Shown here: positions 8,720-58,548 of the stretch, piece by piece
Position numbering within the stretch: the stretch's first letter is position 1
Layout of the letters: each line of letters opens with the position of its first letter
Assembly (NCBI GenBank): GCA_965215235.1
Contig: OZ244053.1
Location: 3,431,192-3,495,191 of the forward strand
Reading direction: 5' to 3'
From: Terriglobia bacterium
Lineage (GTDB): Bacteria; Acidobacteriota; Terriglobia; Versatilivoradales; Versatilivoraceae
DNA: 64,000 nucleotides
The notes under the pieces: model-generated
Told to the model about the DNA's origin: nothing
Database searches by the model: none
What the model saw: the letters and a program-made list of their open reading frames with translations, nothing else
Translations under genes and position numbers: made by a program

Positions 8720-9130
8720 GATAAATGTGCCTGAAGGGCGAAAAATCGGCCCTGAACAGGACAAAAATTACCGGAACAACGGGGAAAAGCCCCAAAAGGG
8801 ACAGAAACCCCTGTCTATAACCCTTCTGATGACCAATCTATCCGAAACATAACGTTATGCAGAGGCCTCGGATTGACCAAGCTGCCGGTTGCGTTGAACC
8901 ATGATTCTCCAAAACCATTGCCTCGTGGCAAGGTCGGTCGGTGAACCCCGACACAAAAGTAGCACAGTTCTCGGCGGGTCTCAAAGAGTCCCTGTCGGAG
9001 CATCGAGCGACCGATGGAGTCATTCTATGCTGTCTATGGAAAACGGTGGATGAACCCGGAGTATCGGAAAATTTGGGGTGTCCGGATAATTTTGAGAAAT
9101 CAGCTGCCCATCCGGGACAGAGATACACAC

Positions 9131-9186
9131 CGAAGGTGGGACACCGAAGAGAGGATGCCCCACTTTCGGTGCGAGTCCGGTCGCCA
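9131..9186 (-). terminator. Strong hairpin (12/13-bp stem) immediately downstream of the BON gene; terminator-like, no U-tract
   Basis: caccgaaggtggg...(17 nt)...cccactttcggtg inverted repeat on the plus strand, placed just after the BON stop (9200) in the transcription direction. Confidence 0.35.
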
Positions 9187-9199
9187 AGAACCCCGGGGC

Positions 9200-9778
9200 T
9201 TAGCTTTTCTGCACGACGAGACTGTTGGTCACCGAGAAAACTCCGGGGACCTCCAGAGCTCTCAGGTAGGCAAAATTCTTGTCCGACTCGCTGTTGACCA
9301 TGCCGACGAGGGTCACATGTCCTCTTTTTACAATGATCCCGATCGCCTCGTAGTCACCCAGGCTGTAAGGGAATAGGCGACTCCCCCGGTTGTAAAGGGC
9401 ACGATAGACCGCCAGTCGAATCTGATCATCATTCGGTGAGTTCGGCAACACTTCGATATTGTTGACGACCTTGGAAACGCCCTCGATTCTTTCCACGACT
9501 CTTGCAGCAGAATTCTTCAAGCCCGGGCTGGTGACCTGGCCGATCAATTGAACAGCATCACCATCAATCTGAAAGCCGAGGTGGTCGAAGACACTGAAGT
9601 ACGGAAGCATGACCAGTTCGTGGCGGACCTTGTTCTCCAGCCATCTCTGGTCCTGAGCCGAGGGATTCTCAGCTACGGTTCCGCCGGTCTGCGGATTGCC
9701 CGCCCAAGAAACCGCCGATACGGCCAACAGCACTGCCACAAAAAAAGAAGTCATCGTTGCTTTCCTGAATGTTTTCAT
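9200..9778 (-). CDS. BON-domain (OsmY-like) periplasmic protein with two BON domains
   Basis: Signal peptide MKTFRKATMTSFFVAVLLAVSAVSWA. Two BON-like segments (VMLPYFSVFDHLGFQIDGDAVQLIGQV...; YEAIGIIVKRGHVTLVGMV...). Confidence 0.8.
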   Translation of the reverse strand: MKTFRKATMTSFFVAVLLAVSAVSWAGNPQTGGTVAENPSAQDQRWLENKVRHELVMLPYFSVFDHLGFQIDGDAVQLIGQVTSPGLKNSAARVVERIEGVSKVVNNIEVLPNSPNDDQIRLAVYRALYNRGSRLFPYSLGDYEAIGIIVKRGHVTLVGMVNSESDKNFAYLRALEVPGVFSVTNSLVVQKS

Positions 9779-9914
9779 CGTTTTTCATCCTCCTGGTCAG
9801 GCTCGATCCGGATTCTTGTGAATGGTTGAATCTCCGCCGGACCGGCAATGAGAGTGCTCAGGCAACCCGAAGGTTGCTTGGCTCCACTGATATTTCTATA
9901 GATGCCTGTTAGCC

Positions 9915-9960
9915 CAAAAGCGATGTAAAGAGTTGGTCAACGCCAAGTAAAGTTTTGTCA
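9915..9960 (-). promoter_or_regulatory. Conserved envelope-stress element copy 1, upstream of the BON gene
   Basis: caaaag-N4-GTAAAGAGTTGGTCAACGCCAAGTAAAGTTTTGTCA. The 36-bp core is about 75% identical to the copies at 11044-11087 and 12673-12718. In gene orientation it reads TGACAAAACTTTAC-N17-ACTCTTTAC. Confidence 0.6.
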
Positions 9961-9982
9961 TCACCCCAGCATGGCCAGCCGC

Positions 9983-10975
9983 TCACGAGCGCCGCTTCAA
10001 CACGGGTCGATTCTCATCATCCGGTTGCGGCTCTTCCTCTCCATCAACTTCCCCAGGGGTACGGCGCTTCAGGGTGGGTCGCTCTTGTTGCCCTCCTGGT
10101 GATGGCCGCTTGACATTTTCCATGGCGATGAGCTTGGCTTTGATCTTGTCGAAGTCGGTGGTGTTAATGATGTACTGGTCGCGCTCCGGCAGAATCTTTT
10201 CGATGTGCGCCTGGGTTTTCTCGTCCCGCTTGTGGGTGGGCGGATGGGTCGCGAAGGCCGTGGCCAACTTGCCCCGCTTTTTCTTTTTCTGGGCCTGTAG
10301 CTTCTCAAAGAACGAAACAAACCCATTGGGGTCGTAGCCTGTCTTGTATACGTACTGAAGCCCCAGGTAGTCTGCCTCGGTCTCGGCCTTTCGGCTGAAC
10401 CTCAAGAATTGCATGGGGATCAAGAAGCTCGACGCGTTGTAGATCGCCGAGGCAATCCCTCCGCTGAGAAAGATCAGAGGGATCATGGCATAGTTGGCAA
10501 TGGTGGCTTTGGTCTGTTGCTCGGTGGCGTGGCGGGCGGTGACGTGAGCAATCTCATGGGCCATCACGCCCGCGATTTCGGATTCGTCGTCGGCTGCGGC
10601 AATCAGGCCACTGTTGACGTAGAGGAACCCTCCCGGCAAGGCCATGGCATTGATCTCTTCCGAGTCGATGACCTTAATGGTAAAGGGCACTTTGGCATCG
10701 GAGTTGCGAACGATGTTCTGGCCAACGCGGTTCACATACTCGGTGATTTCAGGATCCTCAACCAGTTTGACTTGACGTTCGATCTGCTGGGACAGTTGTC
10801 GTCCGAGAGCGATCTCCTTCTCTATTGAAATGAGATTCCAGTTACCCTTGTTGACGTTACGGTTGCCGATCTCGTCCACATCGGAGTTCTTGGGGGCCTT
10901 GGCGCCCAAGGGCGCACCGCTGACGAGGCTCACTGTCAACAAAGGGGTCAGAAAAAATCTTCTGAGGCATTGCAT
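9983..10975 (-). CDS. M48 family zinc metalloprotease (HtpX/BepA-like) with signal peptide and a low-complexity Lys/Pro-rich C-terminal tail
   Basis: HEIAHVTARH (HExxH) plus the downstream ETEADYLGLQYV glutamate motif; N-terminal signal peptide. Confidence 0.85.
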   Translation of the reverse strand: MQCLRRFFLTPLLTVSLVSGAPLGAKAPKNSDVDEIGNRNVNKGNWNLISIEKEIALGRQLSQQIERQVKLVEDPEITEYVNRVGQNIVRNSDAKVPFTIKVIDSEEINAMALPGGFLYVNSGLIAAADDESEIAGVMAHEIAHVTARHATEQQTKATIANYAMIPLIFLSGGIASAIYNASSFLIPMQFLRFSRKAETEADYLGLQYVYKTGYDPNGFVSFFEKLQAQKKKKRGKLATAFATHPPTHKRDEKTQAHIEKILPERDQYIINTTDFDKIKAKLIAMENVKRPSPGGQQERPTLKRRTPGEVDGEEEPQPDDENRPVLKRRS

Positions 10976-11043
10976 GTCCTCCTCCTTGTCGGTTCCACAT
11001 CTTTCAGATTCCTACCTCACTTAAATGGATGCCAACTTGGCTG

Positions 11044-11087
11044 CAAAAGAGGTCAAGAGTGCGTCAACACTCCGTAAAGTTTTGTCA
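11044..11087 (-). promoter_or_regulatory. Conserved envelope-stress element copy 2, upstream of the M48 protease gene
   Basis: caaaag-N2-GTCAAGAGTGCGTCAACACTCCGTAAAGTTTTGTCA; the proximal end is about 70 bp from the M48 start codon. Confidence 0.6.
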
Positions 11088-11268
11088 AGCTGGGTGGCGT
11101 TGCTTCGGGTTTGGTCCCATCGGAACGACTGAGAGAGATCCCTCCAGAGGGTGGGGAACCTGATAAGAATCGAAAGCACGGTCAGCGAGGCGGGACTCTA
11201 CTCGATGGGTTGTCTGCAGCAGGGGCGCTCGTAAAGCCATACAAGAAAAACGATCCAACTGAAAACTC

Positions 11269-11853
11269 TCAGCGAGACGGTTGCTTAACGTACACCAACT
11301 TCTGAGTTCGCTCGCCTCGCCCTCTTTTGATCGTTCTCGTGACGGTCATCACTTTGCCGTCATCAGAGAGGCTGCGGACCTCCTTCAACTCCACGCTTCC
11401 CCTGGGGGTTTCCATGCTGGATTCAGTCACCAACTGACTCCCCTCCCAGTAGGTTTTTGACGGTGTGGGCATTCCACCCAATCCCTCATGGGTCGACTCT
11501 TTTCCGTCTGTGGTGTACCTCGACTCACGGACCTGTTCGGCGCCCCGGAAATTCATTGTCTGTCTGATGATAAGCTGCGGCTCCTGGTGATCGATGGTCA
11601 GGTTGCCCATTCCACCTCCTCTGCCCATACGTTCCCTGCCAGACCGCCCCTCTTCCCTCCCTTCTCGGCGCCCTCCTTCACCCAACCTCCCACCGCCCCG
11701 TCCTCCACCAAACCCGCCGGGGCCAGGTCCACGGCCACCCCTGCCCATTTCACTCCTCTCGGGATCCAGCTCCCAGGCGCCTGAGAAGTTGGGTTTCTCA
11801 CCTGCCATCAGCATCAGGCTCAGACCCAGAAACAATATCGCCGAGACGGTCAT
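11269..11853 (-). CDS. Secreted Gly/Arg-rich hypothetical protein
   Basis: Signal peptide MTVSAILFLGLSLMLMAG. A low-complexity block GRGGRGPGPGGFGGGRGGGRLGEGGRREGREEGRSGRERMGRGGG is followed by a ~100-aa structured C-terminal domain. Lies in tandem downstream of the Spy-like gene. Confidence 0.55.
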   Translation of the reverse strand: MTVSAILFLGLSLMLMAGEKPNFSGAWELDPERSEMGRGGRGPGPGGFGGGRGGGRLGEGGRREGREEGRSGRERMGRGGGMGNLTIDHQEPQLIIRQTMNFRGAEQVRESRYTTDGKESTHEGLGGMPTPSKTYWEGSQLVTESSMETPRGSVELKEVRSLSDDGKVMTVTRTIKRGRGERTQKLVYVKQPSR

Positions 11854-12032
11854 CGCTTTCTTGGTTCCCATTACCTTTTCCTCCTTGTCGGCTGTCGTCG
11901 TTGGTTGTCAGTAGATTGCTCGATGTCTGTCAACGCCCCTAAAAGCCAACCGGCGGCAATGAGGTCGACCTTTGCCTGAAAACCAGTCAACCTCATCGCC
12001 GCTGGCGAGACCCAACCAACCCGGTTCGGTCC

Positions 12033-12620
12033 TTACGGTTGGTCGGGGCCAGGGCTGCCGCCGAAACGCTCGTGCCTCCGCTGCTTGCGCTCCTCTCTGC
12101 GGGCTTTTTGCTTCTCTTGAAACGAGGTCCATTTCTGCTGTTGCTCCGGCGTCAAGACATTAAAAAACTCCACCCGCGTCTTGGCGCCAATGGCCACCAG
12201 CTGACCCTGGAGCTGGCCGTGCTCGGCTGCTAAAGTGTCGATCTGAACCGTATCCCCTGCCTGGACGGCTGCGCCCAGAGCTTGCCGGTTGGCCCGCAAC
12301 TGTTGGCGGATGGGTCGGGATTGATCCCGGGCAGCCTGTCGGATCGCTTTGGCGTCGGCCTTTTGAGCTTCGGTCAACCCCAAAAACTCGGCCATCAGGC
12401 CTCCCATCATGTGCTTGCCGCCAAAGCCTCGCCCGCGACCACCGCGCCCACCGAAGCCCGGGAACTGGGCAAAAGCGGATTCCACCAAGAGAATCGAGGC
12501 CAGAGCAAAGGCTGCGACCACCATGCCTTTTGCAAGAATCCGGCCCGTTTGGATTTTTGTTGAAATCTGAAACATCTGAGTTTCCTCCTTAGCAAAGATT
12601 TGGATTGGAAGAGCCTTCAC
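12033..12620 (-). CDS. Spy/CpxP-family periplasmic protein (LTXXQ motifs)
   Basis: Two LTXXQ motifs (LGLTEAQKADAKAI; LTPEQQQKW), a hydrophobic signal-like N-terminus, a GRGGRGRGFGG stretch and a Lys/Arg-rich C-terminus. The true start may be an internal Met (MFQIS or MVVAAF). Confidence 0.75.
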   Translation of the reverse strand: MKALPIQIFAKEETQMFQISTKIQTGRILAKGMVVAAFALASILLVESAFAQFPGFGGRGGRGRGFGGKHMMGGLMAEFLGLTEAQKADAKAIRQAARDQSRPIRQQLRANRQALGAAVQAGDTVQIDTLAAEHGQLQGQLVAIGAKTRVEFFNVLTPEQQQKWTSFQEKQKARREERKQRRHERFGGSPGPDQP

Positions 12621-12672
12621 AGTGACCTTGCTGCGTCCCCGGCTCTTACCCTATATATACGTCGCTCAAGGC

Positions 12673-12718
12673 AAAAGGGTCGTAAAGAGTGCGTCAGTGT
12701 TCAGTAGAGTTTTGTCAG
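12673..12718 (-). promoter_or_regulatory. Conserved envelope-stress element copy 3, upstream of the Spy/CpxP-like gene
   Basis: caaaag-N4-GTAAAGAGTGCGTCAGTGTTCAGTAGAGTTTTGTCA. Confidence 0.6.
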
Positions 12719-13103
12719 CGAACGACAGACCCCCTTACAATTCTTTACAAATGACCTGTCTTGGGGATAGGGGGCAGGTGTTGGAGGTGAAGCTCCTCTA
12801 TAACAGGAGAAGTGGTGAACAATATCGGACTCAGGAAGGATGCACTGACATCTAAAATCCTCTGGCGACAGTTCCTGGTACGTCAACAAGGCCGTCACTA
12901 AGCTTTGCCATCGGCTTCTGCACGGATGAGGATTTTGTTCGATAACCTGATCCCAGAGGGAACGCTGTTCGCCAAGTGAAACCTACCCTGGAAAACTGAA
13001 CGCTGACCGAGCCAAAATGGTACTCTAGGCGATGGGCAACTTAAGCTCCGTTTAACCATCCGAGTACAACCCGGACAGCACCTATTCCCACATTGAGGTC
13101 ACC

Positions 13104-13838
13104 ATGGATCGCTTGCTGGTCATCGATGACGACACCGAGCTGTGCTCGCTGGTCACCAAGTATCTGGAGGTAGAGGGTTTTCAAGTGGACAGTGTCAACG
13201 ATGGACAGGAGGGGATCGGACGGGCTCTTTCGGGAGAGTATGCCTTGGTGATTCTGGATGTGATGTTGCCCGGCGTCAACGGTTTTGACGCCTTGCGCCG
13301 CATCCGAGCTGAATCGCGAGTCCCCGTTTTGATGCTGTCGGCCAGAGCCGAGGATGTCGAGAGAATCGTGGGACTCGAAATCGGTGCTGACGATTACCTT
13401 GGCAAACCCTTCAATCCTCACGAACTGGTCGCGCGAATCCGGGCCATCATTCGTCGCACTCAGCCCAAAGAGCCGCTTGCGCCCGAAAAAGTCATTCATC
13501 CGATGCTGACTGTGGGTGACGTCGAACTGGACAAGAATGCCTGGAAGGTCAGGCGGGCGGGCGAACCGGTGGGACTCACAGCTTTGGAGTTCAATCTTCT
13601 GGAACTGTTACTGCGGTCGGCTGGCCAGGTGGTGCCCCGTGAAGAACTCGTCCAAACACTGCTGGGACGTGAGTTCGATCCCTTTGACCGCAGCATAGAC
13701 ATGCACGTGAGCAACTTGCGCAAGAAACTGGGCCGCCAGGCGAATGGAGTCGAGCGGATCAAGTCGGTTCGGGGAGTCGGCTATGTTTATCCCCATCCAG
13801 ACACTCTTGAGGAGGAAGGGCTATCTTCCGACTCTTAA
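13104..13838 (+). CDS. cpxR: OmpR-family response regulator, CpxR-like
   Basis: MDRLLVIDDDTELCSLVTKYLEVEGF...LMLSARAEDVERIVGLEIGADDYLGKPFNPHELVARIRAIIRR closely parallels E. coli CpxR (receiver + winged-helix). The symbol is assigned by similarity and context only. Confidence 0.8.
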   Translation: MDRLLVIDDDTELCSLVTKYLEVEGFQVDSVNDGQEGIGRALSGEYALVILDVMLPGVNGFDALRRIRAESRVPVLMLSARAEDVERIVGLEIGADDYLGKPFNPHELVARIRAIIRRTQPKEPLAPEKVIHPMLTVGDVELDKNAWKVRRAGEPVGLTALEFNLLELLLRSAGQVVPREELVQTLLGREFDPFDRSIDMHVSNLRKKLGRQANGVERIKSVRGVGYVYPHPDTLEEEGLSSDS

Positions 13839-13950
13839 ACTCGTGAAAAGCCTGCCCTATGAGGAGGTCGAGAGTTGTTCGTGAGGACTGATTCAGGGGC
13901 GAGCGAAACCGTCTCGTCCTTGGTCTTCAACCAACGGCTCCTCTGCTTCA

Positions 13951-13986
13951 TTGACAAAACTTTAGAAAACCGGGTCCATTATTTAC
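13951..13986 (+). promoter_or_regulatory. Half-conserved copy 4 of the envelope-stress element, upstream of the histidine kinase gene
   Basis: TTGACAAAACTTTAG-N16-TTTAC matches the distal TGACAAAACTTTAC half and the repeat spacing of copies 1-3. It lies about 85 bp before the MNSLV start. Confidence 0.4.
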
Positions 13987-14074
13987 CGGCCATCAAGGTC
14001 GAATCAGATATAGCGGGTTGTATTCCTTGGGTCAAGCCGGGAGCCTCTGCGGTCATTGGTTAAAAACTGAAAGC

Positions 14075-15538
14075 ATGAACAGTCTCGTATTAAAAATCTT
14101 CATCTGGTTCTGGGCGGCCATGGCTTTGGTTGGCCTGGCCCTCTATCTCTCGACCCGAGCCACCATGTCCGAACAGGCCGACCGCCAAGGGCGCCAGTGG
14201 ATTGAGATGGCCATATCCCTCGTTGCGCAAACGGCGGCTGATACTTTCGAGAAACAGGGACCTTCGGCTTTGGATCGATACATCAATCGAGTCAATCGGC
14301 GGCGGCGATTTCATATCTCTTTCCTCAATGAGCAGGGGGACATCCTGGCTGGACCTGCTCTGTCACCCCGGGCGAGAACCTTGGCGATGCGTGCGATTCA
14401 GAGCGGCGAGCGCCAGATGGAATTCTCTGAGGGGGAGCGTTTGGTGGCGCAGGGTATGGTTTCATCTGAAGGTCGACAGTTCGCCTTAGCAGGCAAAATC
14501 AGGACATCTCCGCCAAGATTTCCTCCTGGACGACGGCGGGGACAACGACCGGGGCCACCATTCGTTTGGGGGGCTCTAGGCATTCCGGACGCCGATCTCT
14601 GGACCCAGGGGCTTCGCTTGCTGGCGATGTTCCTCACGGCCGGAATCGTCTGCTATGGCTTGGCGCGCTACCTGACAGCTCCCCTGGTTAAACTTCGGGC
14701 CGCCACACAAAAGTTGGCGGATGGAGACTTGGCGGCTCGGGTCGGGCAACCTAAAAGGGGCCGCCGCGATGAACTCACCGACCTTGGCCATGATTTCGAT
14801 GGAATGGCCGAACGCATCCAAAGCATGATGGCCGCTCAGCGTCGTCTGCTGAGTGACATCTCTCACGAACTACGCTCTCCCCTGGCCCGCCTCCATGTTG
14901 CTCTGGCATTGATTCGTCAACAGGCGGGCGGCAAAACCAGTGATGAGCTGGACCGCATCGAGCTGGAGGCGGGGCGTCTCAACAAACTCATCAGCCATGT
15001 ACTCACTCTCACGCGCATGGAAAGCGGCGCCGTGGAGATTGCCCACGACGACATCGATCTGGCCCAAATGGTGGCGGAGGTAGCCGCCGATGCTGAGTTC
15101 GAGGCCCGCAGTTCGGAAAAGAGGGTTTCCATCATCTCCAGCGAAGCCTGCGTTACCGTGGGAAACCACGAACTGCTGCGAAGCGCGATTGAGAATGTTG
15201 TCCGCAACGCCGTTTACTATACGGCGGACCAAACCGAGGTCGAAATTGAGTTGAAGCTGGTAGGGAAAAACCGGGGCTCAGCCGTCATAAGAGTGCGCGA
15301 CCATGGGGAAGGGGTTCGTGAGTCGGAACTCACCGAGATCTTTCGGCCATTCTACCGGGTGGCAACAGCCCGAGACAGACAGAGCGGTGGAACCGGGCTG
15401 GGACTGGCCATTACACAACGGGCGGTGTACCTGCATGACGGCTCAGTGACGGCCTTCAACGCTCCGGGTGGCGGATTGATCATCGAGATCCGACTCCCTG
15501 CGCGGCCGGGTCGGGTAGATCCAACCGGAGCACCCTAG
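14075..15538 (+). CDS. cpxA: Sensor histidine kinase, CpxA-like (2 TM, HAMP, HisKA, HATPase)
   Basis: N-terminus MNSLVLKIFIWFWAAMALVGLAL resembles CpxA. H-box ISHELRSPLARL; G-box GTGLGLAI. The start is chosen at the internal Met that gives a CpxA-like N-terminus. Confidence 0.8.
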   Translation: MNSLVLKIFIWFWAAMALVGLALYLSTRATMSEQADRQGRQWIEMAISLVAQTAADTFEKQGPSALDRYINRVNRRRRFHISFLNEQGDILAGPALSPRARTLAMRAIQSGERQMEFSEGERLVAQGMVSSEGRQFALAGKIRTSPPRFPPGRRRGQRPGPPFVWGALGIPDADLWTQGLRLLAMFLTAGIVCYGLARYLTAPLVKLRAATQKLADGDLAARVGQPKRGRRDELTDLGHDFDGMAERIQSMMAAQRRLLSDISHELRSPLARLHVALALIRQQAGGKTSDELDRIELEAGRLNKLISHVLTLTRMESGAVEIAHDDIDLAQMVAEVAADAEFEARSSEKRVSIISSEACVTVGNHELLRSAIENVVRNAVYYTADQTEVEIELKLVGKNRGSAVIRVRDHGEGVRESELTEIFRPFYRVATARDRQSGGTGLGLAITQRAVYLHDGSVTAFNAPGGGLIIEIRLPARPGRVDPTGAP

Positions 15539-32095: not shown

Positions 32096-34481
32096 ATGAG
32101 TATTTTCCTTCGATTGCGGCAGGTTTTATGCGTTGCTTTTCTGATCATGTTGACAGCCGTCCCCGGGCTGGCTCAGGAGCAAACCGTCCGAGTGGGTACT
32201 GTACTGGATGGCCCTGGCGGCCTGGATGTGGCGTTTCGAGCCTCTCTGGAAAGCGAGGTGAGCCGCCTGCTGAGCAGACGGTACGAGGTGCTGTTTCCAC
32301 CGGAAAAACAGTTGGTTGGGGACTGGTCCGCTGCGGCTGCCCGTCGGAACATAGATTCGCTGTTGGCGGACTCGGAAGTCGACGCCGTTCTTGTCCTCGG
32401 GATTGTCGGCCCGGTCCACGTGACACGCCGCGCTGAAATCCCCAAACCGGTAGTTGCCGCGGCTGTGTTCGATCCCGAAGCCAATGGGATTCCAGTAGAG
32501 ATACGGGAACGGCCAGTGCCTGGACGAGACGGCATTGAGAGTGTCCGCGTTAGCGGCGTGACGAACCTGAGTTACGTTTCCTACAACCAGGATCTGGTAA
32601 GGGAACTTGAGACCTTCCGCAGGATTACACCATTTTCGCAACACCTCACCATTCTGATGATCGAGGGCTGGCTGGACGAACTCGCCAGCGTTCTGGAAAG
32701 GTTGAAACAAACGCTCAGGGGATTGGGCGTGGAAGCGGCCCTTCCTGCCCGTGGGGTCCTCGATCGACGAAGTGCTTGCGAGTCTACCGGCGGACACAGA
32801 GGCGGTCATGCTGAGCGCCATGCCCCACTTGCCTTCCGAGGAGTTTGAGCGGCTCATCGCCGGTCTCAATCAGAGGAAGCTGCCGACGTATTCGCTGCGG
32901 GGACAGCGCGACGTGCGGCGTGGAGTCATGGCCAGCCTGCAAGCGGACCGAAACGAGCTGTTCCTCGTCCGCCGAGTCGCCCTGAATCTCTTCAACATCG
33001 TGCAGGGCGAAGACGCGGACGACCTCCCGATAGACTTCGGCGCGGACGAACAACTCACGATCAACATGACCACAGCGCGGGCGGTCCAAGTTGATCCGAC
33101 ATTCGTATTACTCACCGAGGCAGAGGTTATTGGAGAAATGGAAGAACCTCCCGTCCGGCGGATATCGCTTTCCTCAGTAGTCCACGAGGCTGCCAACGTC
33201 AATCTTGATCTGATAGCTGCCGAGCGCCAAGTGGAGGCAGGATTTCAGCTTGTCAGAGAAGCACGATCGGTATTGTTGCCCCAGGCAAGCCTCTCGAGCC
33301 AAGGATCCACCTTCCGAGGCGGCGGAAGACGGATTGCGGGAACTGCAGGACTCAGTCAGTTCATCTACTCGGAACAAGCCAAGTCTCTCTATGACATTGA
33401 GCGCCATCGCCAGATGTCGCGAGAAGAGCAACGGTTTCAGTTACGCCTGGATACTATTCTGCAGGCCGCGCAAAGCTACCTCCAGATCCTGAGGGCAAAG
33501 ACAGTCGAGAATATCGAGAAGAACAACTTGGCGCTAACTCGCTCAAACCTGGGCCTCGCCCGAGCTCGCGTCGATGTCGGCACGGCAGGACGCGATGAAG
33601 TTCTGCGCTGGCTCAGCCAGATCGCCCAGAACCGCCACCGCGTGATCGAGGCCTCAGCGGCGCGCAATCGAGCTGAGATTATCCTCAACAGAATTCTTAA
33701 CCGCACACTTGAGGAGCCGTTCGAAACCGCCGAAGCGGGCTTGGATGACCCCGATCTGACGGTGAACTTCAAGGTCCTACGACCTTATATCGAGAGTCCT
33801 CAATCGTTCAAGTTGTTTCGGGAATTCATGGCCCAGGAAGCTTTTGACAGCTCGCCGGAACTGAGACAACTCGATGCGGGCATTCGCGCCCAGCAGCGCA
33901 GGTTGTTGGCCTCCAAGCGGGCTTTCTACATCCCGAAGGTCAGCGTCGATGCGCAAACGCGAACATTCAAGAACACTACAAGCCCGCCTGAAGGTGCTCT
34001 TAACACGGACTGGACGGTCGGATTCAACGCCTCTCTGCCTGTCTTTCAGGGCGGGCTCTTGCGCGCCCAAAAGACCCGAGCTGAAATCGAGTTAAAGCAA
34101 CTAACAACCGAGCGAGAAGCAACATCCCTGGTAATCGAGCAGAACATCCGCTCGGCTCTCCACATGGCGGGGGCTTCCTTTGCCGGCATCGAGTTGGCAA
34201 GAGAGGCTGCCATGGCTGCTCAAGAGAACCTTGAACTGGTCCGCGATTCCTACTCCGAAGGGTCTGTCAACATTGTTCGCGTCTTGGACGCGCAATCCCA
34301 GGCTCTGTCGGCGCAATTGGACGCGGCAAACGCGGTGTTCAATCACTTGATCGACCTGATGGCGACGCAGCGAGCTGCCGGCCGCTTCGACTATTTTCGG
34401 TCCCTGGAGGAACGAGATGTGTTTATCCGCCGCCTCAAGGCCTTTTTCCAAGAGAAAGGCTATGCCGTTCGCAACAATTAG
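32096..34481 (+). CDS. Outer-membrane efflux protein (TolC-like) with an unusual ~390-aa N-terminal extension; split by an apparent +1 frameshift near 32744-32756
   Basis: C-terminal ~430 aa show TolC/OEP-like repeated coiled-coil and barrel segments. The 250-aa ORF (32096-32848) continues into the 576-aa ORF (32751-34481) across cttcctgcccgtggggtcc. Confidence 0.65.
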
Positions 34482-35646
34482 CAAGGTCCGACCAATGATC
34501 GACTATCCATGGAAGACGCAATCCTACAGGCAAATGGTTCTTTGCGGCGCGGTGCTGATCAATGCAGTTGGAGTGGCATGCACAGAGGAGCCGCAGCCAC
34601 CGGAGGAACCACAGCCTCGCACAGTCAAGTACGTCGAAGTCGTCGCACAGAGCGGTACTCGGATGCGCACGTTTACGGGCTTCGCAAAGGCTGACGTACG
34701 CGCTGAGTACGCCTTTCGCGTCTCCGGGATGGTGCAAAGGGTTTATATCGGCCAAGGTGACATCGTCGCAGAAGGAGACGTGATCGCGGAGATCGATCCC
34801 GTGGATTTGGAGATTCAGCTTCGTGAGACGGAGGCCTCTCTCGCAGAAGCCAAAGCACAAGCAGTCTTGGCGGATTCCGATTTTCAGCGCACTCAGCGCT
34901 TGTATGAGAAAGATAATATTTCTCGGGGAGAATTTGAGTCGGCGCTGGCCAAGCGCGAGTCGGCGCATGCGCGTGTCGAGTCGGTCGAGCAGAAACTGCA
35001 ACAAGCCAAACGGCAGCTGGATCACACGCGACTCCGCGCCCCAACCGGATGCGCCATCATCGAAGTGAAAGTCGAGGAAGGAGAAAGCGTACAGGCAGGC
35101 ACCCCTGTGGTGGAAGTGGTGACCGGCGGAAAACCCCACGTTGAGATTGCTGTTCCTGAGAGGTTCATCGCTAAGATCTCCGAGGGCGCTTCAGCCAGCG
35201 TCCGTTTCCCGGCAGTCCCAGGGCACGCCTTCCTCGGCCGCGTGACCACTGTGGGAGTTGTTCCCGCACAAGGCGTAACCACCTATCCTGCGACCATTGA
35301 ATTAAACAGCTCTTGGACCGAGCTCATGGGTCGCTATGGCGGCGTGCCCATTCGGCCTGGGATGGCAGTTGAGGCGCAGATGGAGTTTGGGGGTGGAGGG
35401 GGGCGGGCACGCCATGTCGTCGCTCCGAATGCCGTCGTTGTGGATGGTGATGACAAGTTCGTCTATGTCGTTGAGACGGGTGGCGACGTCTTCGGTGTCG
35501 CCCGACGCCGAAGTATCGAAACCGGCCAACTCGTTGCGGCAGGAATCGAAGTGCTTGCGGGTCTGACCGACGGCGACAAGGTCATCACGGCCGGACTGAA
35601 TCAGATACGAGACGGGCAACAAGTGCGCCTGCTAGGCCGAGACTAG
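34462..35646 (+). CDS. RND efflux periplasmic adaptor (membrane fusion protein, HlyD family)
   Basis: Biotin-lipoyl-like and beta-barrel segments (RAPTGCAIIEVKVEEGESVQAGTPVV); lies between the OMP and RND genes. Confidence 0.8.
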   Translation: MPFATISKVRPMIDYPWKTQSYRQMVLCGAVLINAVGVACTEEPQPPEEPQPRTVKYVEVVAQSGTRMRTFTGFAKADVRAEYAFRVSGMVQRVYIGQGDIVAEGDVIAEIDPVDLEIQLRETEASLAEAKAQAVLADSDFQRTQRLYEKDNISRGEFESALAKRESAHARVESVEQKLQQAKRQLDHTRLRAPTGCAIIEVKVEEGESVQAGTPVVEVVTGGKPHVEIAVPERFIAKISEGASASVRFPAVPGHAFLGRVTTVGVVPAQGVTTYPATIELNSSWTELMGRYGGVPIRPGMAVEAQMEFGGGGGRARHVVAPNAVVVDGDDKFVYVVETGGDVFGVARRRSIETGQLVAAGIEVLAGLTDGDKVITAGLNQIRDGQQVRLLGRD

Positions 35647-35654
35647 GGGCAACT

Positions 35655-38600
35655 ATGGATTTGACGCGTTTCGCCATTACCAACAACCGCGTTACGGCTA
35701 TCTTCCTGCTGGCGGTGCTGCTTGGCGGATACAGCGCCTATCAGACCATGGAACAGTCCATGGACCCTGGCTTCACGATACGCACTGCCCAGATCGTCAC
35801 TCGCTTTCCGGGCGCGAACCCGGAGCGAGTCGAAGCGCTGGTGACCGACCAGCTCGAAAAAGCCATTCAAGAGCTTCCCGAACTCGACTTCGTGACCAGC
35901 ACATCGAAGACGGGCGTTTCGATCATCTCTGCGAACGTTCGGGACGAGTTTACAACCATGCGGCCGATCTGGGACAAGCTGCGACGCAAAATCAATGATG
36001 CTGCTCGTAGTCTGCCCAAAGGCGCGCTCACCCCCGAAGTCAACGATGAGTTCGGTGACGTTTACGGAACGATCATCGCTGTCACTGGAGACGGGTTCGA
36101 CTATCGTGAGCTCAAGGACTTCGCACTTCAGTTGCGAGATGGCTTGCTACGGCTTGAGAACATTGGAAAAGTAGACCTCCTGGGAAGTCAGGCCGAGCGC
36201 ATTTTCGTTGAGTACAACGATGCCCGGCTGGCTAAACTGAATCTGTCAGTCAGCCAAGTGAGCCAAATTCTCCAGTCACGAAACATCCTTATTTCCGGCG
36301 GAAGCCTGCTTGCAGGAGAGGAACGACTCGAGTTGGAACCTTCCGGAAATTTCAACACTGTCGAGGAACTGGCGCGCACCGTCATCAGCGTGCCGAGCCG
36401 TCCGGGCCTGCTCTACCTGGAAGACATCGCGGAAATCAGTCGAGGTTACATAGATCCTCCAGCCAGCAAGGTGCGCGCAAACGGTCAACCGGCCCTGATG
36501 TTAGCCCTTTCCGTAAGAGAGGGCGGTAACATCGTGACGTTGGGCGAAGAAGTGCAAGATCTGCTGGAACGCTCGAGAAATCAGTATCCTCTCGGAGTCA
36601 ATCTCGACATCGTGGCCTTCGAGCCGGAGCGTGTCGCAAAGAAGGTCGAGGAGTTCACCAGCAGCGTAGTGCAGGCCGTCCTCATCGTGCTGGCCTCTAT
36701 GCTGCTGATGCTCGGCATACGCACTGGCCTTGTGACTGCGACGCTGGTGCCTTCGGCTTTGCTGATGAGCCTGCTGGTGATGCAGTGGATGGGGTTGGGG
36801 CTAAACCAGATGACGCTGGCATCGTTAATCATCGCCTTGGGCATGCTGGTGGACAACGCCATCGTGATGAACGAGTCGATCATGGTGTCGATGTCAGAGG
36901 GCGTACCGCCCGTTGAAGCAGCTGTCAGCTCGGCCAAAGAGCTTCGGATTCCGTTGCTCACTTCGTCCCTGACCACTTCCGCCGCCTTCCTTCCAATCTA
37001 TCTCGCCGAAGGGTCAATGGGCGAGTACACCGGCGTTTTGTTCACTGTCGTCACGATTACTCTGTTTTGCTCCTGGCTGCTCGCGCTGACCGTCATTCCA
37101 CTTCTTTGCGCCCGGTTCCTCAAAGTTAAAGGGAGAAAGGGCAAGGATGCCTATAACACCCCTTTTTATCGGATGTATCGGGGCGTCCTGTTCAGGCTGG
37201 TGCGAGTCCCGCTGTTGTCCCTGGGTCTCATTCTCGGCATCTTTTTTCTCTCGTTACAGGGTTTCGCCTTGATTCCTAATGTCTTCTTCCCGCCGGACAA
37301 TACGCCGATAATGACCGCCGAATTCGAGGCGCCGATTGGGACGTCGATCGAAAAGACTGAAGAGTTCGTCCAGGACCTGGACGATTTCATCCAGACAGAG
37401 CTTGTCCAGACAAAAGAGCGTTCGGACGGAGTGCTCAATTGGTCCGCCTATGTCGGCCAGGGAGCGCCCCGGTTCACGTTGACCTACAGTTCGCACCCCG
37501 CGGGTCCCGAGTATGCTTACCTGCTCTTCAATTTGACAACTGCTGAACTTATTCCGGAGTTCGCTCACAAGATCGAGCAGTTCTGTAGGGAGCGTTATCC
37601 CTCCGTGATTCCCACCATAGGGCCACTGCCTTTGGGCGCCGTCATTAACAATCCAGTAGAAGTCAGGATTTCCGGATCCGACCAAACCCAGGTTTTCGCC
37701 ATTGCCGACACGGTCAAGGCTCAAATGCAGTCTATCGCGGGGACCAGGAATGTTGGAGACGACTGGGGAGAGCGAACGAAGAAGTTAACGGTGCAGATTG
37801 ATGAGCCGAGGGCAAGACGAAGTGGTGTCACTCACCAGGACATCGCAATGTCGCTGCAGTCGGTGCTGAGTGGCTACGCGGCGACGGAGTATCGCGAGGG
37901 CACCGAGATCATTCCCGTTACCATCAGATCCGTGGCGGCGGACCGACAGGATGTCTCGAAGCTGGAGAGCCTGAACGTTTACTCTCAAAGCCAAGGCACT
38001 TCAGTCCCGCTCATGCAGGTGGCGGCTTTGGCCATCGAATGGCAACCCGCCAAGCGGCTGCGACGTAACCGGCTGACAACGGTAACTGTCTCGAGCAACC
38101 TCACCGAAGGAGTGACAACTGCTGAAGTCACGACCCAACTTGCCGGGTGGCTGGAAAAGGAGCAATCTTCCTGGCCACCGGGGCATTTCTACGAGTTCGG
38201 GGGCGAACTGGAACAGTCTGCCCGAGGCGAAGGAGCCATCATCGACAAACTTCCTTACGCCGGGATCATGATCTTGATCTTGCTCATCATGCAGTTCAAT
38301 TCGTTCCGGAGACCTCTGATCATTCTGTTGACCATACCACTCGCGCTGGTTGGGGTTGTTGTAGGTCTCCTGGTTACCAGTTCCTTCTTCGGTTTTATGA
38401 CTCTGCTCGGATTAATCTCCCTGGCCGGCATAGTCATCAACAATGCAATCGTCCTGCTTGACCGCATCGCGATCGAGATCAATGAGAACGGGCATGCACC
38501 GCCGCGAGCCGTGATCGAGGCTGCCCAGCGCCGGTTGCGTCCCATCCTGTTAACGACGGTAACCACAGTTGGCGGCTTGATCCCCCTATGGTTGGGCGGA

Positions 38601-38747
38601 GGCCCGATGTGGGAAAGCATGGCGATTGCAATTATTTTTGGATTGATCTTCGCAACCCTCCTCACGCTCGGCGTCGTTCCGGTGCTCTACACTCTCTTTT
38701 TTCGAGTTAAGTTCAAGGGCTTTCGATACAAGCCCGCGGGAGCATAA
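35655..38747 (+). CDS. RND efflux transporter permease (HAE1/AcrB family)
   Basis: 1030 aa with 12 TM helices and two large periplasmic loops, as in the AcrB family. Confidence 0.85.
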   Translation: MDLTRFAITNNRVTAIFLLAVLLGGYSAYQTMEQSMDPGFTIRTAQIVTRFPGANPERVEALVTDQLEKAIQELPELDFVTSTSKTGVSIISANVRDEFTTMRPIWDKLRRKINDAARSLPKGALTPEVNDEFGDVYGTIIAVTGDGFDYRELKDFALQLRDGLLRLENIGKVDLLGSQAERIFVEYNDARLAKLNLSVSQVSQILQSRNILISGGSLLAGEERLELEPSGNFNTVEELARTVISVPSRPGLLYLEDIAEISRGYIDPPASKVRANGQPALMLALSVREGGNIVTLGEEVQDLLERSRNQYPLGVNLDIVAFEPERVAKKVEEFTSSVVQAVLIVLASMLLMLGIRTGLVTATLVPSALLMSLLVMQWMGLGLNQMTLASLIIALGMLVDNAIVMNESIMVSMSEGVPPVEAAVSSAKELRIPLLTSSLTTSAAFLPIYLAEGSMGEYTGVLFTVVTITLFCSWLLALTVIPLLCARFLKVKGRKGKDAYNTPFYRMYRGVLFRLVRVPLLSLGLILGIFFLSLQGFALIPNVFFPPDNTPIMTAEFEAPIGTSIEKTEEFVQDLDDFIQTELVQTKERSDGVLNWSAYVGQGAPRFTLTYSSHPAGPEYAYLLFNLTTAELIPEFAHKIEQFCRERYPSVIPTIGPLPLGAVINNPVEVRISGSDQTQVFAIADTVKAQMQSIAGTRNVGDDWGERTKKLTVQIDEPRARRSGVTHQDIAMSLQSVLSGYAATEYREGTEIIPVTIRSVAADRQDVSKLESLNVYSQSQGTSVPLMQVAALAIEWQPAKRLRRNRLTTVTVSSNLTEGVTTAEVTTQLAGWLEKEQSSWPPGHFYEFGGELEQSARGEGAIIDKLPYAGIMILILLIMQFNSFRRPLIILLTIPLALVGVVVGLLVTSSFFGFMTLLGLISLAGIVINNAIVLLDRIAIEINENGHAPPRAVIEAAQRRLRPILLTTVTTVGGLIPLWLGGGPMWESMAIAIIFGLIFATLLTLGVVPVLYTLFFRVKFKGFRYKPAGA

Positions 38748-39023
38748 GGCCAAGCACCAGCCGCCTGAATTCTATGGTCTGCCTAAGGGATTCCGGATGT
38801 TCTGGCATCGAACGGTTGTGCGCCGGCCAATCCTGCTCTGGAGACGGCGTGCGCCTTATCGAACCGGTGTAGAACACCTAACGGCGCTTTTGGCGGCAGG
38901 ATGCGCGAGAAGAACGACGGCTGCTCAATTTCGTGGTCTCGAACTGCTTCTGGCGGGATGGCAAACTGACTACTATGATCGACCCAGGATTACTGAAAGG
39001 CCGTCAATGGCTTTTCTAAGACT

Positions 39024-39097
39024 TGGCTGGGAGGCAGGGATTCGAACCCCGATAAGCAGATCCAGAGTCTGCTGTCCTACCGTTAGACGACCTCCCA
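39024..39097 (-). tRNA. tRNA-Gln (anticodon CUG)
   Basis: Hand-folded cloverleaf: acceptor UGGGAGG/CCUCCCA (U1-A72, as in bacterial tRNA-Gln), D-stem GUCU/GGAC, anticodon stem GCAGA/UCUGC, loop CUCUGGA, T-arm CGGGG-UUCGAAU-CCCUG, encoded CCA. Confidence 0.85.
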
Positions 39098-39129
39098 AAC
39101 AGTCGGGAAGGACCTACGATTTTCTCAAC

Positions 39130-40336
39130 CTTGCGGTTGTAGCATCTCTGTAAATAGTTGTCAACGCTCTGTGCGGGTTCAGTACCTGTGAGACTCGGTC
39201 GGGCGGCCTTGCAGGTATCAAGGGACTCCATGGACGTCCTCATGTCCAGGGATCGGTGAGGTCGGATGTCATTGTAGAAGTGCTGGTAGTCGGCGAGGGC
39301 GGCGGCGACGGTGAGTTGGCGCTGTAGAGGTTTCAGAACTCCACGCGGGCGCTGTGGTTGGCGCGTTCGACAGTCCAATCACTCCCCCCTTGAGGGGGAG
39401 TCGCAGCCGCCAAACGCCGGCGGCTGCGGTGGGGGGACGGGGCGGCAGGACAAGCTGAGGGATATCCAGAGTTTGGCAGGCTGGCTCGAACTCAGCCCTG
39501 AACTCGCTGCCGCCGTCGACCTGGACGGAATGGAGAGCCTGCACTCCTGAGATCTGGCCTCCTGACAGGAGGCCAGCCTTCTTGAGAAGAAATCAGGCCA
39601 GGGGCAGGTCCTGGACCGCGGCCGGCAGGAAGCCTCTGGTGTGATTCCCCTCCTGGGAGGGGCTGCACTCCTCGGAGGAGTGCAGGGGTGGGTCCAGCGG
39701 TGGTGCGGGAATAGACGCGGGTCACCCTCTACTTGCCGACCGGGGAGACAGCCCGGAACTCTTGGAGCTGTACACCGTCGAGGGACACCGAGAGGTGATC
39801 GATCTGCACCCGTTCACCGGGTGGGGTGGCCTTGGCGCCCTAGCGCCAGCGCTGGGCGTGGCCTTGGTCGAAGCGGCGGCGCTTCTTCAGCTTGACGCGG
39901 CCCCGACAGAAGGCGCAGGACCTGATACGACCGAGCCGCACGCCTTGGGCCAGGATGCAGCCAGGGTGGATTCACCCGGATGGACGCCCTGGCGGGCCAG
40001 CAGGACAGGCAGGCGTCACTTGCCCATGAAGGGATAGCGCCGCCGCAAGGCCCGGACCTGGCGCTGCTGGGCCGGGGTCCATGGCCGCCTTCGGAAGCGT
40101 TGCGGTCGTCGGCTGAGGGCTGCCAAGCCCGGGGGGCCGTGCTCCCGGTAGCGCGCGGCCCAGCCGAAGTCGGTGGCTCTGAACCCACCGATGGCCCGCA
40201 GGGCGGTCTTTGGGGAGCAGCCCCCGGCCCGTAAGTCCCGGTAGATTTCCAGTGGGCGCTGTCTGATGATAGCCTCGGCGGGCAGGGTGTCGTCGACTTT
40301 GAAACGGTGATCAGAGGGGATGGGCAGCGATGGAAT
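39130..40336 (-). pseudogene. Degraded IS481-like DDE transposase (HTH + rve) with an in-frame TGA and several frameshifts
   Basis: Minus-strand pieces: N-terminus ...GCSPKTALRAIGGFRATDFGWAARYREHGPPGLAALSRRPQRFRRRPWTPAQQRQVRALRRRYPFMGK-TGA-RLPVLLARQGVHPGESTLAA, then PGERVQIDH (first D), then VQVDGGSEFRAEFEPACQTLDIPQ (NGSEF-like), then the C-terminus LADYQHFYNDIRPHRSLDMRTSME. These lie in different frames, so the gene is non-functional as read. Confidence 0.75.
39136..39164 (-). promoter_or_regulatory. Possible sigma-70 promoter for tRNA-Gln (TTGACA-N17-TACAAC)
   Basis: Reverse complement of 39159-39164 is TTGACA; a weak -10 TACAAC lies 17 bp downstream, about 30 nt before the tRNA 5' end. 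Confidence 0.3.
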
Positions 40337-58448: not shown

Positions 58449-58548
58449 AAACTTGATTCCCCACTTTTCGCGCCCAACCAAAAATGGGCTATCCTTCAAG
58501 GATAGCCCATTGATTGCCCCTTGTGATCACCAACGTCCTGCCAAAGCT

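Follow-up and report, generated by a model that had tools for sequence, protein, structure and literature searches.

A conserved array of four TTKAC repeats before three envelope-protein genes of an acidobacterium is a candidate operator of the adjacent CpxR-like regulator

We analysed a 64,000-nucleotide stretch of the genome of a Terriglobia bacterium (contig OZ244053.1, positions 3,431,192 to 3,495,191; hereafter the window), which comes from an uncultured lineage represented by metagenome-assembled genomes (MAGs). In this window three genes for secreted or periplasmic proteins, namely a BON-domain protein, an M48 protease and an LTXXQ-family protein, are each preceded by a copy of the same 36-bp element. 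We propose, with a probability of about 0.78, that the element is the operator of a CpxR-like response regulator encoded next to them (13104-13838, plus strand) and that this regulator activates the three promoters. How the element is built, that it is conserved and that it is linked to the regulator gene are direct observations. An earlier note on this DNA had already proposed a small envelope regulon in which the element serves as operator of the neighbouring CpxRA-like pair; at the level of sequence this proposal is supported by a footprint in 12 relatives, by the linkage to the regulator gene and by a DNA-binding domain of CpxR type.

Three copies of a phased four-repeat array

All three copies lie on the minus strand. 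Copy 1 (9925-9960; TGACAAAACTTTACTTGGCGTTGACCAACTCTTTAC in gene orientation) is found 146 nt before the ATG of the BON gene at 9778, copy 2 (11052-11087; TGACAAAACTTTACGGAGTGTTGACGCACTCTTGAC) 76 nt before the ATG of the M48 gene at 10975 and copy 3 (12682-12717; TGACAAAACTCTACTGAACACTGACGCACTCTTTAC) 106 nt before the ATG of the LTXXQ gene at 12575, in the intergenic region that this gene has in common with the divergent regulator-kinase operon. Each of the three start codons has an AGGAGG-type ribosome-binding site.

The sequence scanned comprises the 64 kb of this genome and up to 20 kb per relative. A degenerate 36-nt pattern matches the window at exactly these three sites, compared to 0.00 matches expected from 100 dinucleotide shuffles. 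With a 40-nt position weight matrix (PWM) built from the sites of relatives (23 unique sites), copies 1 to 3 score 56.9, 54.0 and 45.1 bits respectively, while the top score over 30 shuffles is 12.2, and nothing else in the window exceeds the shuffle range. The three full copies reported by the earlier note are thus real, although its count of 27 invariant positions among the 36 of the core drops to 25 when the three copies are compared. Similarity among the copies is 80% in the core compared to 21% upstream and 36-44% downstream. The 14-mer TGACAAAACTTTAC, allowing up to two mismatches, has 5 matches in the window against 0.22 expected: two are exact, one has a single mismatch at copy 3 and one has a single mismatch before the kinase gene. 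The fifth, a two-mismatch match at 58539-58552, was dropped for want of PWM support. No RNA family matched in an Rfam scan of 9000-14300 at E <= 1, so the element does not correspond to any known RNA motif.

In gene orientation the core reads TGAC-N5-TTTAC-N6-TTGAC-N6-TTTAC, corresponding to four direct TTKAC repeats. The pentamers start at core positions 0/1, 10, 21 and 32, with spacings of 10, 11 and 11 bp that place all four on one face of the helix. In copy 1 they occupy 9957-9960 (TGAC), 9947-9951, 9936-9940 and 9925-9929; in copy 2 the fourth repeat is TTGAC instead of TTTAC. The direct repeat of TTTAC about 22 bp apart that had been noted earlier does exist, but it is one part of a full array of four in-phase pentamers with a 10-11 bp period. 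Information content in the PWM is highest on the pentamers and on the C before pentamers 2 and 4, while the six or seven bases separating pentamers 2 and 3 are nearly free in the related genomes. This pattern defines a unit of two tandem boxes, TTGAC-N4/5-CTTTAC. The array has the direct, not inverted, repeats at about one helical turn that are expected of an OmpR/PhoB-family operator. On the opposite strand the pentamers read GTAAA or GTCAA, and the plus strand of the window carries GTAAA-N5-GTCA and GTAAA-N6-GTCA, variants of the Cpx box expected in a cpxP-type promoter and of the GTAAA/GTCAA kind reported for P. aeruginosa CpxR.

Conservation of the array and its linkage to a CpxR-type regulator

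A protein-seeded search with the regulator yielded 12 loci from 'Candidatus Versatilivoraceae/Versatilivorator' and related Terriglobia MAGs, with regulators 81-89% identical to that of the window. Gene order is kept in these relatives: BON, then M48, the gene for a 200-aa protein and LTXXQ, with the regulator and kinase genes divergent from the latter, and 0.7-4 kb of unrelated DNA separates the BON and M48 genes. Exactly three full PWM sites (scores 47-58) are present in each relative locus whose flank is long enough. Full sites are found only before the BON, M48 and LTXXQ orthologues, and all such promoters present carry one. The BON site is found in 10 of the 12 loci, which are all those whose sequence covers this promoter (among them L001, L002, L004-L008, L011 and L020); the M48 site is found in 10 of the 10 loci that hold the promoter and also in metagenome locus L103; and the LTXXQ site is found in 12 of 12, with a mean pairwise identity of 0.95 compared to 0.47 for the 30 nt upstream. 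Over all sites the mean pairwise identity among relatives is 0.87-0.95 in the 36-bp core and 0.46-0.47 in the 30 nt upstream; between window and relatives the corresponding values are 0.78-0.93 and 0.22-0.38. We read such a conserved core amid diverged flanks as a clear phylogenetic footprint.

Between copy 3 and a conserved block close to the regulator gene, the window holds about 290 bp of unique non-coding DNA (12720-13010). L001 and L002 have a different insert of about 240 bp at this position and eight other relatives have none. A repeat or mobile insert at 12720-13060 was considered and rejected, a second copy being absent from the window and from 160 loci.

The same arrangement is seen at greater distance. 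In 13 genome loci with regulators 59-72% identical, mostly from Acidobacteriota (including Blastocatellia and Pyrinomonadaceae) plus Nitrospirota/Thermodesulfovibrionia, the opposite strand carries a four-repeat site 70-320 bp upstream of the regulator gene, and 13 of the 19 PWM hits of at least 9 in 1.13 Mb fall in this interval. The position of copy 3 is likewise occupied in the distant loci L012-L025 and L043. Most often the site serves the gene of an LTXXQ-type protein. In these distant lineages pentamer 1 is TTTAC, so the exact E. coli consensus TTTAC-N5-TTTAC is found within the site. Looser arrays before the regulator gene can be recognised by eye in L022 (Terriglobales), L037 (Nitrospiraceae) and L029/L033-L035 (Acidobacteriaceae). 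No clear array was found upstream of regulators 50-62% identical from Rokubacteria/Methylomirabilota, Geobacteraceae and Burkholderiaceae.

We also scanned metagenome contigs on DNA only with the pattern ACNAANCTYTAC-N7-TKAC-NN-AYTCTTKAC, which biases the sample to sites that match it. At least 120 stretches match, where a rough estimate of the chance expectation is a few. In about 40 of the 80 loci listed from these, the site adjoins a regulator orthologue (51-67% identical) encoded divergently, in most cases with a CpxA-like kinase after it; in five more the regulator is at most 3.5 kb away, and many others are on contigs too short to tell. A callable open reading frame (ORF) lies downstream of 76 sites in the listed loci. 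It encodes an outer-membrane barrel protein of about 1000 aa with a CarboxypepD_reg domain at 28 sites, an LTXXQ protein at about 20, a single-domain receiver at 11 and an HlyD membrane-fusion protein at 4. The remainder are a doubtful ORF of 95-97 aa (4 sites), a VWA protein, a transglutaminase-like protein, an unknown secreted protein and an unassigned product (2 sites each), and one M48 protease. By this census the genes downstream of the listed sites mostly encode predicted envelope proteins. L083, L085, L086 and about 25 further metagenome loci, on contigs from soil, have the gene of the roughly 1000-aa protein, with CarboxypepD_reg and OMP_b-brl_4 domains, as divergent neighbour of the regulator gene, and not an LTXXQ gene.

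The regulator is an OmpR-family response regulator (Pfam Response_reg and Trans_reg_C) whose DNA-binding domain is of CpxR type. Over its whole length it shares 44% identity with E. coli CpxR and 41% with OmpR, and the difference widens in the DNA-binding domain, which has 44% identity to CpxR and 30% to OmpR. Scanned alone against NCBIfam, this domain scores 76.4 bits with CpxR, 70.9 with RpaB and 62.1 with OmpR. Its recognition helix PFDRSIDMHVSNLRKKL is identical to that of E. coli CpxR (PFDRAIDMHISNLRRKL) at 14 of 17 positions, the three differences being conservative; the OmpR helix is AMERSIDVQISRLRRMV.

The kinase gene (14075-15538, plus strand) encodes a CpxA-like sensor histidine kinase with two transmembrane segments, a periplasmic domain and HAMP, HisKA and HATPase domains (Pfam). 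Its best NCBIfam matches are CpxA models with 327 and 280 bits, followed by MtrB at 165 and EnvZ at 126.7. The N-terminal 214 aa, which include the periplasmic domain, have a single NCBIfam match, the Legionella-type CpxA (E 3e-13), while in a BLASTP comparison to E. coli CpxA the cytoplasmic part alone aligns, with 40% identity. An identity as an EnvZ/OmpR osmoregulation pair was considered and rejected on the domain identities and kinase scores just given. No other transcription-factor gene is found between 6.5 and 18 kb of the window.

Candidate promoters, mechanism and rival explanations

Downstream of the array, the BON and LTXXQ promoters share a conserved TATAGA or TATATA box 22-25 nt past pentamer 4. 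For the BON promoter the putative -10 box is TATAGA (9895-9900, minus), 24 nt past repeat 4, with TCTATAGAAATGTCA kept in relatives at the same offset. For the LTXXQ promoter the putative -10 region is TATATATA (12652-12659, minus), 22-24 nt past repeat 4, with GAGCGACGTATATA kept in 12 of 12 relatives. Other metagenome sites of the LTXXQ class have TATAAA or TATAAT about 25 nt past repeat 4. The hexamer at -35 matches the consensus poorly in both window promoters. This spacing would put the array between about -72 and -37, where activators of the OmpR/PhoB family usually sit.

A scan with the sigma-70 consensus revealed no canonical promoter for any of the three target genes. Its only match nearby is TTGTCA-18-TACAAT (12712-12741, plus), which overlaps repeat 1 of copy 3, points to the regulator gene and is not conserved in relatives. 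A second candidate in this direction, ACGACA-18-TACAAA (12722-12751, plus), has a counterpart GTGACA-18-TACAAA at the same place in L001. These regulator-directed candidates, which abut or overlap repeat 1 of copy 3, hint that the regulator-kinase operon is autoregulated through this operator.

At the other end of the LTXXQ gene, a hairpin with an 18-bp stem follows the stop codon (11953-12002, minus; fold of -64.5 kcal/mol for a 169-nt region, z = -3.3). Relatives have a GC-rich hairpin of different stem sequence at this 3' end, followed by a T-run. The hairpin is a probable terminator, which would make the LTXXQ transcript mainly monocistronic. In E. coli the 3' untranslated region of cpxP gives the small RNA CpxQ.

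The match before the kinase gene is a different matter. This partial copy (13951-13986, plus) consists of TTGACAAAACTTTAG, N16 and TTTAC and has one mismatch in the 14-mer. Its PWM score of 10.0 bits is within the shuffle maxima (0-12.2), its first box has a C-to-G change at a position invariant in all full sites, repeat 3 is missing and repeat 4 is out of phase by 1 nt. Recognisable homologues of the 236-bp regulator-kinase spacer are found only in L001 (TTGACAAATCTGCAG...TTTGC) and L020 (TTGAGAACACTAAAG), both with degraded repeats. The spacer is just 24-59 bp in L004, L005, L007, L008 and L009, and the remaining longer spacers of the relatives contain no copy of the element. A TATAGC 22 nt past the TTTAC mimics the geometry of the full promoters and is not conserved. 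The half-conserved copy described earlier is genuine in its first half, but as a whole it is within the range of shuffled sequence, lacks conservation and is not counted in the regulon. It is probably not a functional four-repeat operator, and we think it rather doubtful that it acts as a Cpx-dependent internal promoter. For a two-component operon it is unusual that the length of this spacer ranges from 24 to 494 bp within one family. The spacers of L003 (2043-2231), L006 (10697-10883) and L011 (10697-10882) hold short TTCATTCGTG-like repeats, tandem or inverted, which the window lacks.

We hypothesize that the kinase senses envelope or periplasmic protein-folding stress and phosphorylates the regulator, which would then bind the array as two neighbouring dimers in head-to-tail arrangement, over about -72 to -37, and recruit RNA polymerase to promoters with a recognisable -10 and a poor -35. 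Such activation would switch on the LTXXQ chaperone or adaptor (CpxP/Spy-like), the M48 protease and the BON-domain protein, and copy 3 may also feed back on the regulator-kinase operon. We infer binding, activation over repression, the promoter positions and the stress signal from sequence only.

Several results weigh against this proposal. At full length the regulator has CpxR as its best NCBIfam match with 215.8 bits, but this is under the cut-off of 341 and practically tied with OmpR at 214.9; the kinase is likewise under the cut-offs of the CpxA models (327 against 800 and 280 against 486). The TTTAC half-site is common to the whole CpxR/OmpR/RpaB clade, so the motif alone cannot name the regulator. 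No convincing -10 was found when the M48 promoter was inspected. Finally, in the outer-membrane-protein class of metagenome sites a TACAAT is found 12 nt past repeat 4, one helical turn closer than in the window, so that the array overlaps the -35 region, which would also fit repression there.

The last of these points is an argument for an array that is indeed the operator but through which the regulator represses, or acts both ways depending on the promoter, as E. coli CpxR, which is annotated as a dual regulator, is able to do. We consider this improbable for the genes at hand: in the BON and LTXXQ promoters of the window the array ends about 22-25 nt before the -10-like box, abutting a poor -35 or lying upstream of it, in the activator geometry described above, and CpxR activates the E. 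coli homologues cpxP, spy and htpX (PMC12802237). The clade-wide half-site and the equal full-length scores on the CpxR and OmpR models would suit instead a factor encoded elsewhere, for instance of OmpR/RpaB type, with the neighbouring regulator a bystander. Such a coincidence is decidedly improbable given that the array adjoins a regulator orthologue in the 13 distant genome loci and in about 40 of the 80 listed metagenome loci, and that this linkage holds across different partner genes, directly for LTXXQ and the outer-membrane protein and at about 700 bp for HlyD. The CpxR-type domain and recognition helix, and the lack of another transcription-factor gene between 6.5 and 18 kb, argue in the same direction.

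Two further explanations dispense with a response regulator. The regulon consists of envelope proteins, which are under the control of extracytoplasmic function (ECF) sigma factors in many bacteria, and GGCATC is found 19-24 nt past repeat 4 in two window promoters, so the block might be the promoter of an alternative sigma factor of ECF or sigma-54 type. This is very unlikely: a 36-bp block of four phased repeats does not resemble a two-box promoter, neither GGAAC...CGT (ECF) nor TGGCAC-N5-TTGC (sigma-54) was found on inspection, no sigma or anti-sigma gene is linked to the element and a -10-like box is present separately, downstream of the block. Three copies within 3 kb and a degenerate fourth nearby could also be taken for an interspersed or mobile repeat, similar to repetitive extragenic palindromes (REP) or miniature inverted-repeat transposable elements (MITE), or for the relic of a local duplication, with no regulatory role. 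We give this almost no credence. Inverted-repeat arms and target duplications are absent, and similarity does not extend beyond the core. There is no further copy in 64 kb and all three are in promoters of secreted-protein genes; the same orthologous genes keep the element while their flanks have diverged to background, and variation within the element follows the 10-11 bp pentamer pattern, with no Rfam match. The earlier note had itself named a common interspersed repeat before unrelated genes as one outcome that would speak against its regulon; the window, the relatives and the metagenomes show no such distribution. Taken together, these results favour the operator of the CpxR-like regulator as the explanation of the array.

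Target genes and relation to known systems

The BON gene (9200-9778, minus) encodes a secreted protein of 192 aa with two BON domains (Pfam BON 2e-21, two stretches). Its scores with the OsmY and DolP models of NCBIfam are weak and far under the cut-offs. The earlier listing of an OsmY-like gene among classic Cpx targets needs amending: OsmY and the window protein have only the BON fold in common, and OsmY is not known as a classic Cpx target. The M48 gene (9983-10975, minus) encodes a secreted zinc metalloprotease of 330 aa with an HEIAH motif (Pfam Peptidase_M48 3e-31). Formerly labelled HtpX-like, it scores 168 bits with BepA (cut-off 570), 69.6 with LoiP and at most 26 with HtpX in NCBIfam, and by these scores it is a BepA/LoiP-like catalytic domain without the TPR domain. 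The LTXXQ gene (12033-12575, minus) encodes a CpxP/Spy-like periplasmic protein of 180 aa (Pfam LTXXQ 1e-11, Metal_resist 1e-12), with 46.6 bits for the CpxP family and 38.5 for Spy in NCBIfam and 28% identity to E. coli CpxP. It is divergent from the regulator gene, which starts at 13104 on the plus strand, as expected of a Cpx system.

Between the LTXXQ and M48 genes lies the gene for the 200-aa protein (11269-11871, minus), a secreted protein with a Gly/Arg-rich N-terminal half that matches no Pfam or NCBIfam family. There is no PWM site upstream of this gene. Lacking its own operator, it is not counted as a demonstrated regulon member, and it may be reached only via read-through. It is kept at this place in most relatives, is absent from L006 and L011 and is reduced to a 24-codon remnant in L020.

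Farther along the window a tripartite RND efflux operon (32751-38747, plus) encodes an outer-membrane factor, an HlyD-type fusion protein and an AcrB-type pump. The PWM finds no array site for this operon; in the metagenome relatives L128, L130, L155 and L156, HlyD genes do carry the array. A search of the whole window for the single box TTKAC-N5-6-TTTAC gave a sole extra match at 39150-39164 (minus), which was rejected as a Cpx box because it is part of a near-consensus sigma-70-type promoter, TTGACA-17-TACAAC, just upstream of a tRNA-Gln(CTG) gene (39024-39097, minus). An ORF overlapping this tRNA gene (39016-39378) encodes an rve_3 integrase-core fragment and the DNA from 38.75 to 40.5 kb has no long ORF; a mobile element may once have integrated in this region, the site having decayed since.

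Acidobacteriota are a dominant and mostly uncultured soil phylum of whose transcriptional regulation almost nothing is known, and full-text searches on Cpx in Acidobacteria or Acidobacteriota, or on the genus name of the MAG, brought up nothing relevant. What is gained here is a candidate regulator-operator pair with a defined 36-bp site and three predicted direct target genes. With a recognition helix that is nearly that of CpxR, the prediction is testable in vitro or in E. coli, and the PWM can be used to annotate envelope-stress regulons in MAGs and metatranscriptomes of Acidobacteriota and Nitrospirota. Cpx-type systems and the conservation of the Cpx box would extend beyond the Proteobacteria, where published surveys place them. 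It is conceivable, and we offer this as a tentative conjecture, that the Cpx circuit is an ancient module common to Proteobacteria, Acidobacteriota and Nitrospirota, that the acidobacterial operator has become an obligate double box for a cooperative dimer of dimers, and that in many soil Acidobacteriota the main divergent target is a large CarboxypepD_reg/TonB-like outer-membrane protein. If so, the obligate double box would give a sharper switch and envelope-stress sensing would be tied to the outer-membrane uptake machinery that dominates acidobacterial genomes.

As a mechanism, activation by an OmpR-family protein on tandem direct repeats is textbook and conventional. The sites of OmpR (ompF/ompC) and PhoB are direct repeats with a 10-11 bp period beside or replacing a weak -35; they are bound head-to-tail by winged-helix domains and the OmpR half-site is TTTAC-like. 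The array resembles these operators in its repeat period and, if the putative -10 boxes are right, in its position near a weak -35, and in the outer-membrane-protein class, with TACAAT 12 nt away, its geometry is like that of PhoB. It differs from OmpR/EnvZ in the low identity of the DNA-binding domain to OmpR, in a kinase far nearer to CpxA and in a partner gene for an LTXXQ protein rather than a porin.

The closest parallel is the cpxP-cpxRA locus of E. coli, which has the same order: an LTXXQ gene divergent from a regulator-kinase operon, with the site between them. The E. coli cpxP promoter, whose sequence we fetched, reads CTTTAC-gttgt-TTTAC toward cpxP, so both the half-site and its orientation toward the LTXXQ gene match the window copies. 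Here too the sensor and catalytic parts of the kinase match CpxA models, the recognition helices are alike at 14 of 17 positions and the targets, known in E. coli and predicted here, are periplasmic protein-quality-control factors. The differences are that E. coli has one box where the window has four repeats (two boxes) at a fixed 10/11/11 spacing, with TTGAC as alternate pentamers; that the regulator and kinase are just 40-44% identical to their E. coli counterparts and under the NCBIfam equivalog cut-offs; that the protease target is BepA/LoiP-like and not HtpX or DegP, with a BON protein as an additional predicted target; and that the host is an acidobacterium.

Cpx homologues have been placed all across Proteobacteria of the alpha, beta and gamma classes (PMC12802237). 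The CpxR site is described as GTAAA-N5-GTAAA, tolerating N4-8 and active in either orientation, and high-throughput SELEX (HT-SELEX) with P. aeruginosa CpxR recovered GTCAA variants (PMC5063474; PMC12802237). In P. aeruginosa the published sites include GTCAA-N-GTAAA variants, and muxA, yceJ and PA3965 have pairs of boxes offset by 11 bp; cpxP is among the Cpx targets, as are efflux operons of membrane-fusion or RND type (PMC12802237). The window copies likewise combine GTCAA and GTAAA pentamers, at spacings of 10 and 11 bp, and the HlyD genes of the metagenome relatives carry the array, whereas the RND operon of the window is without a site. The P. aeruginosa arrays consist of three repeats at variable positions; the four-repeat unit described here is nearly invariant across promoters and genomes.

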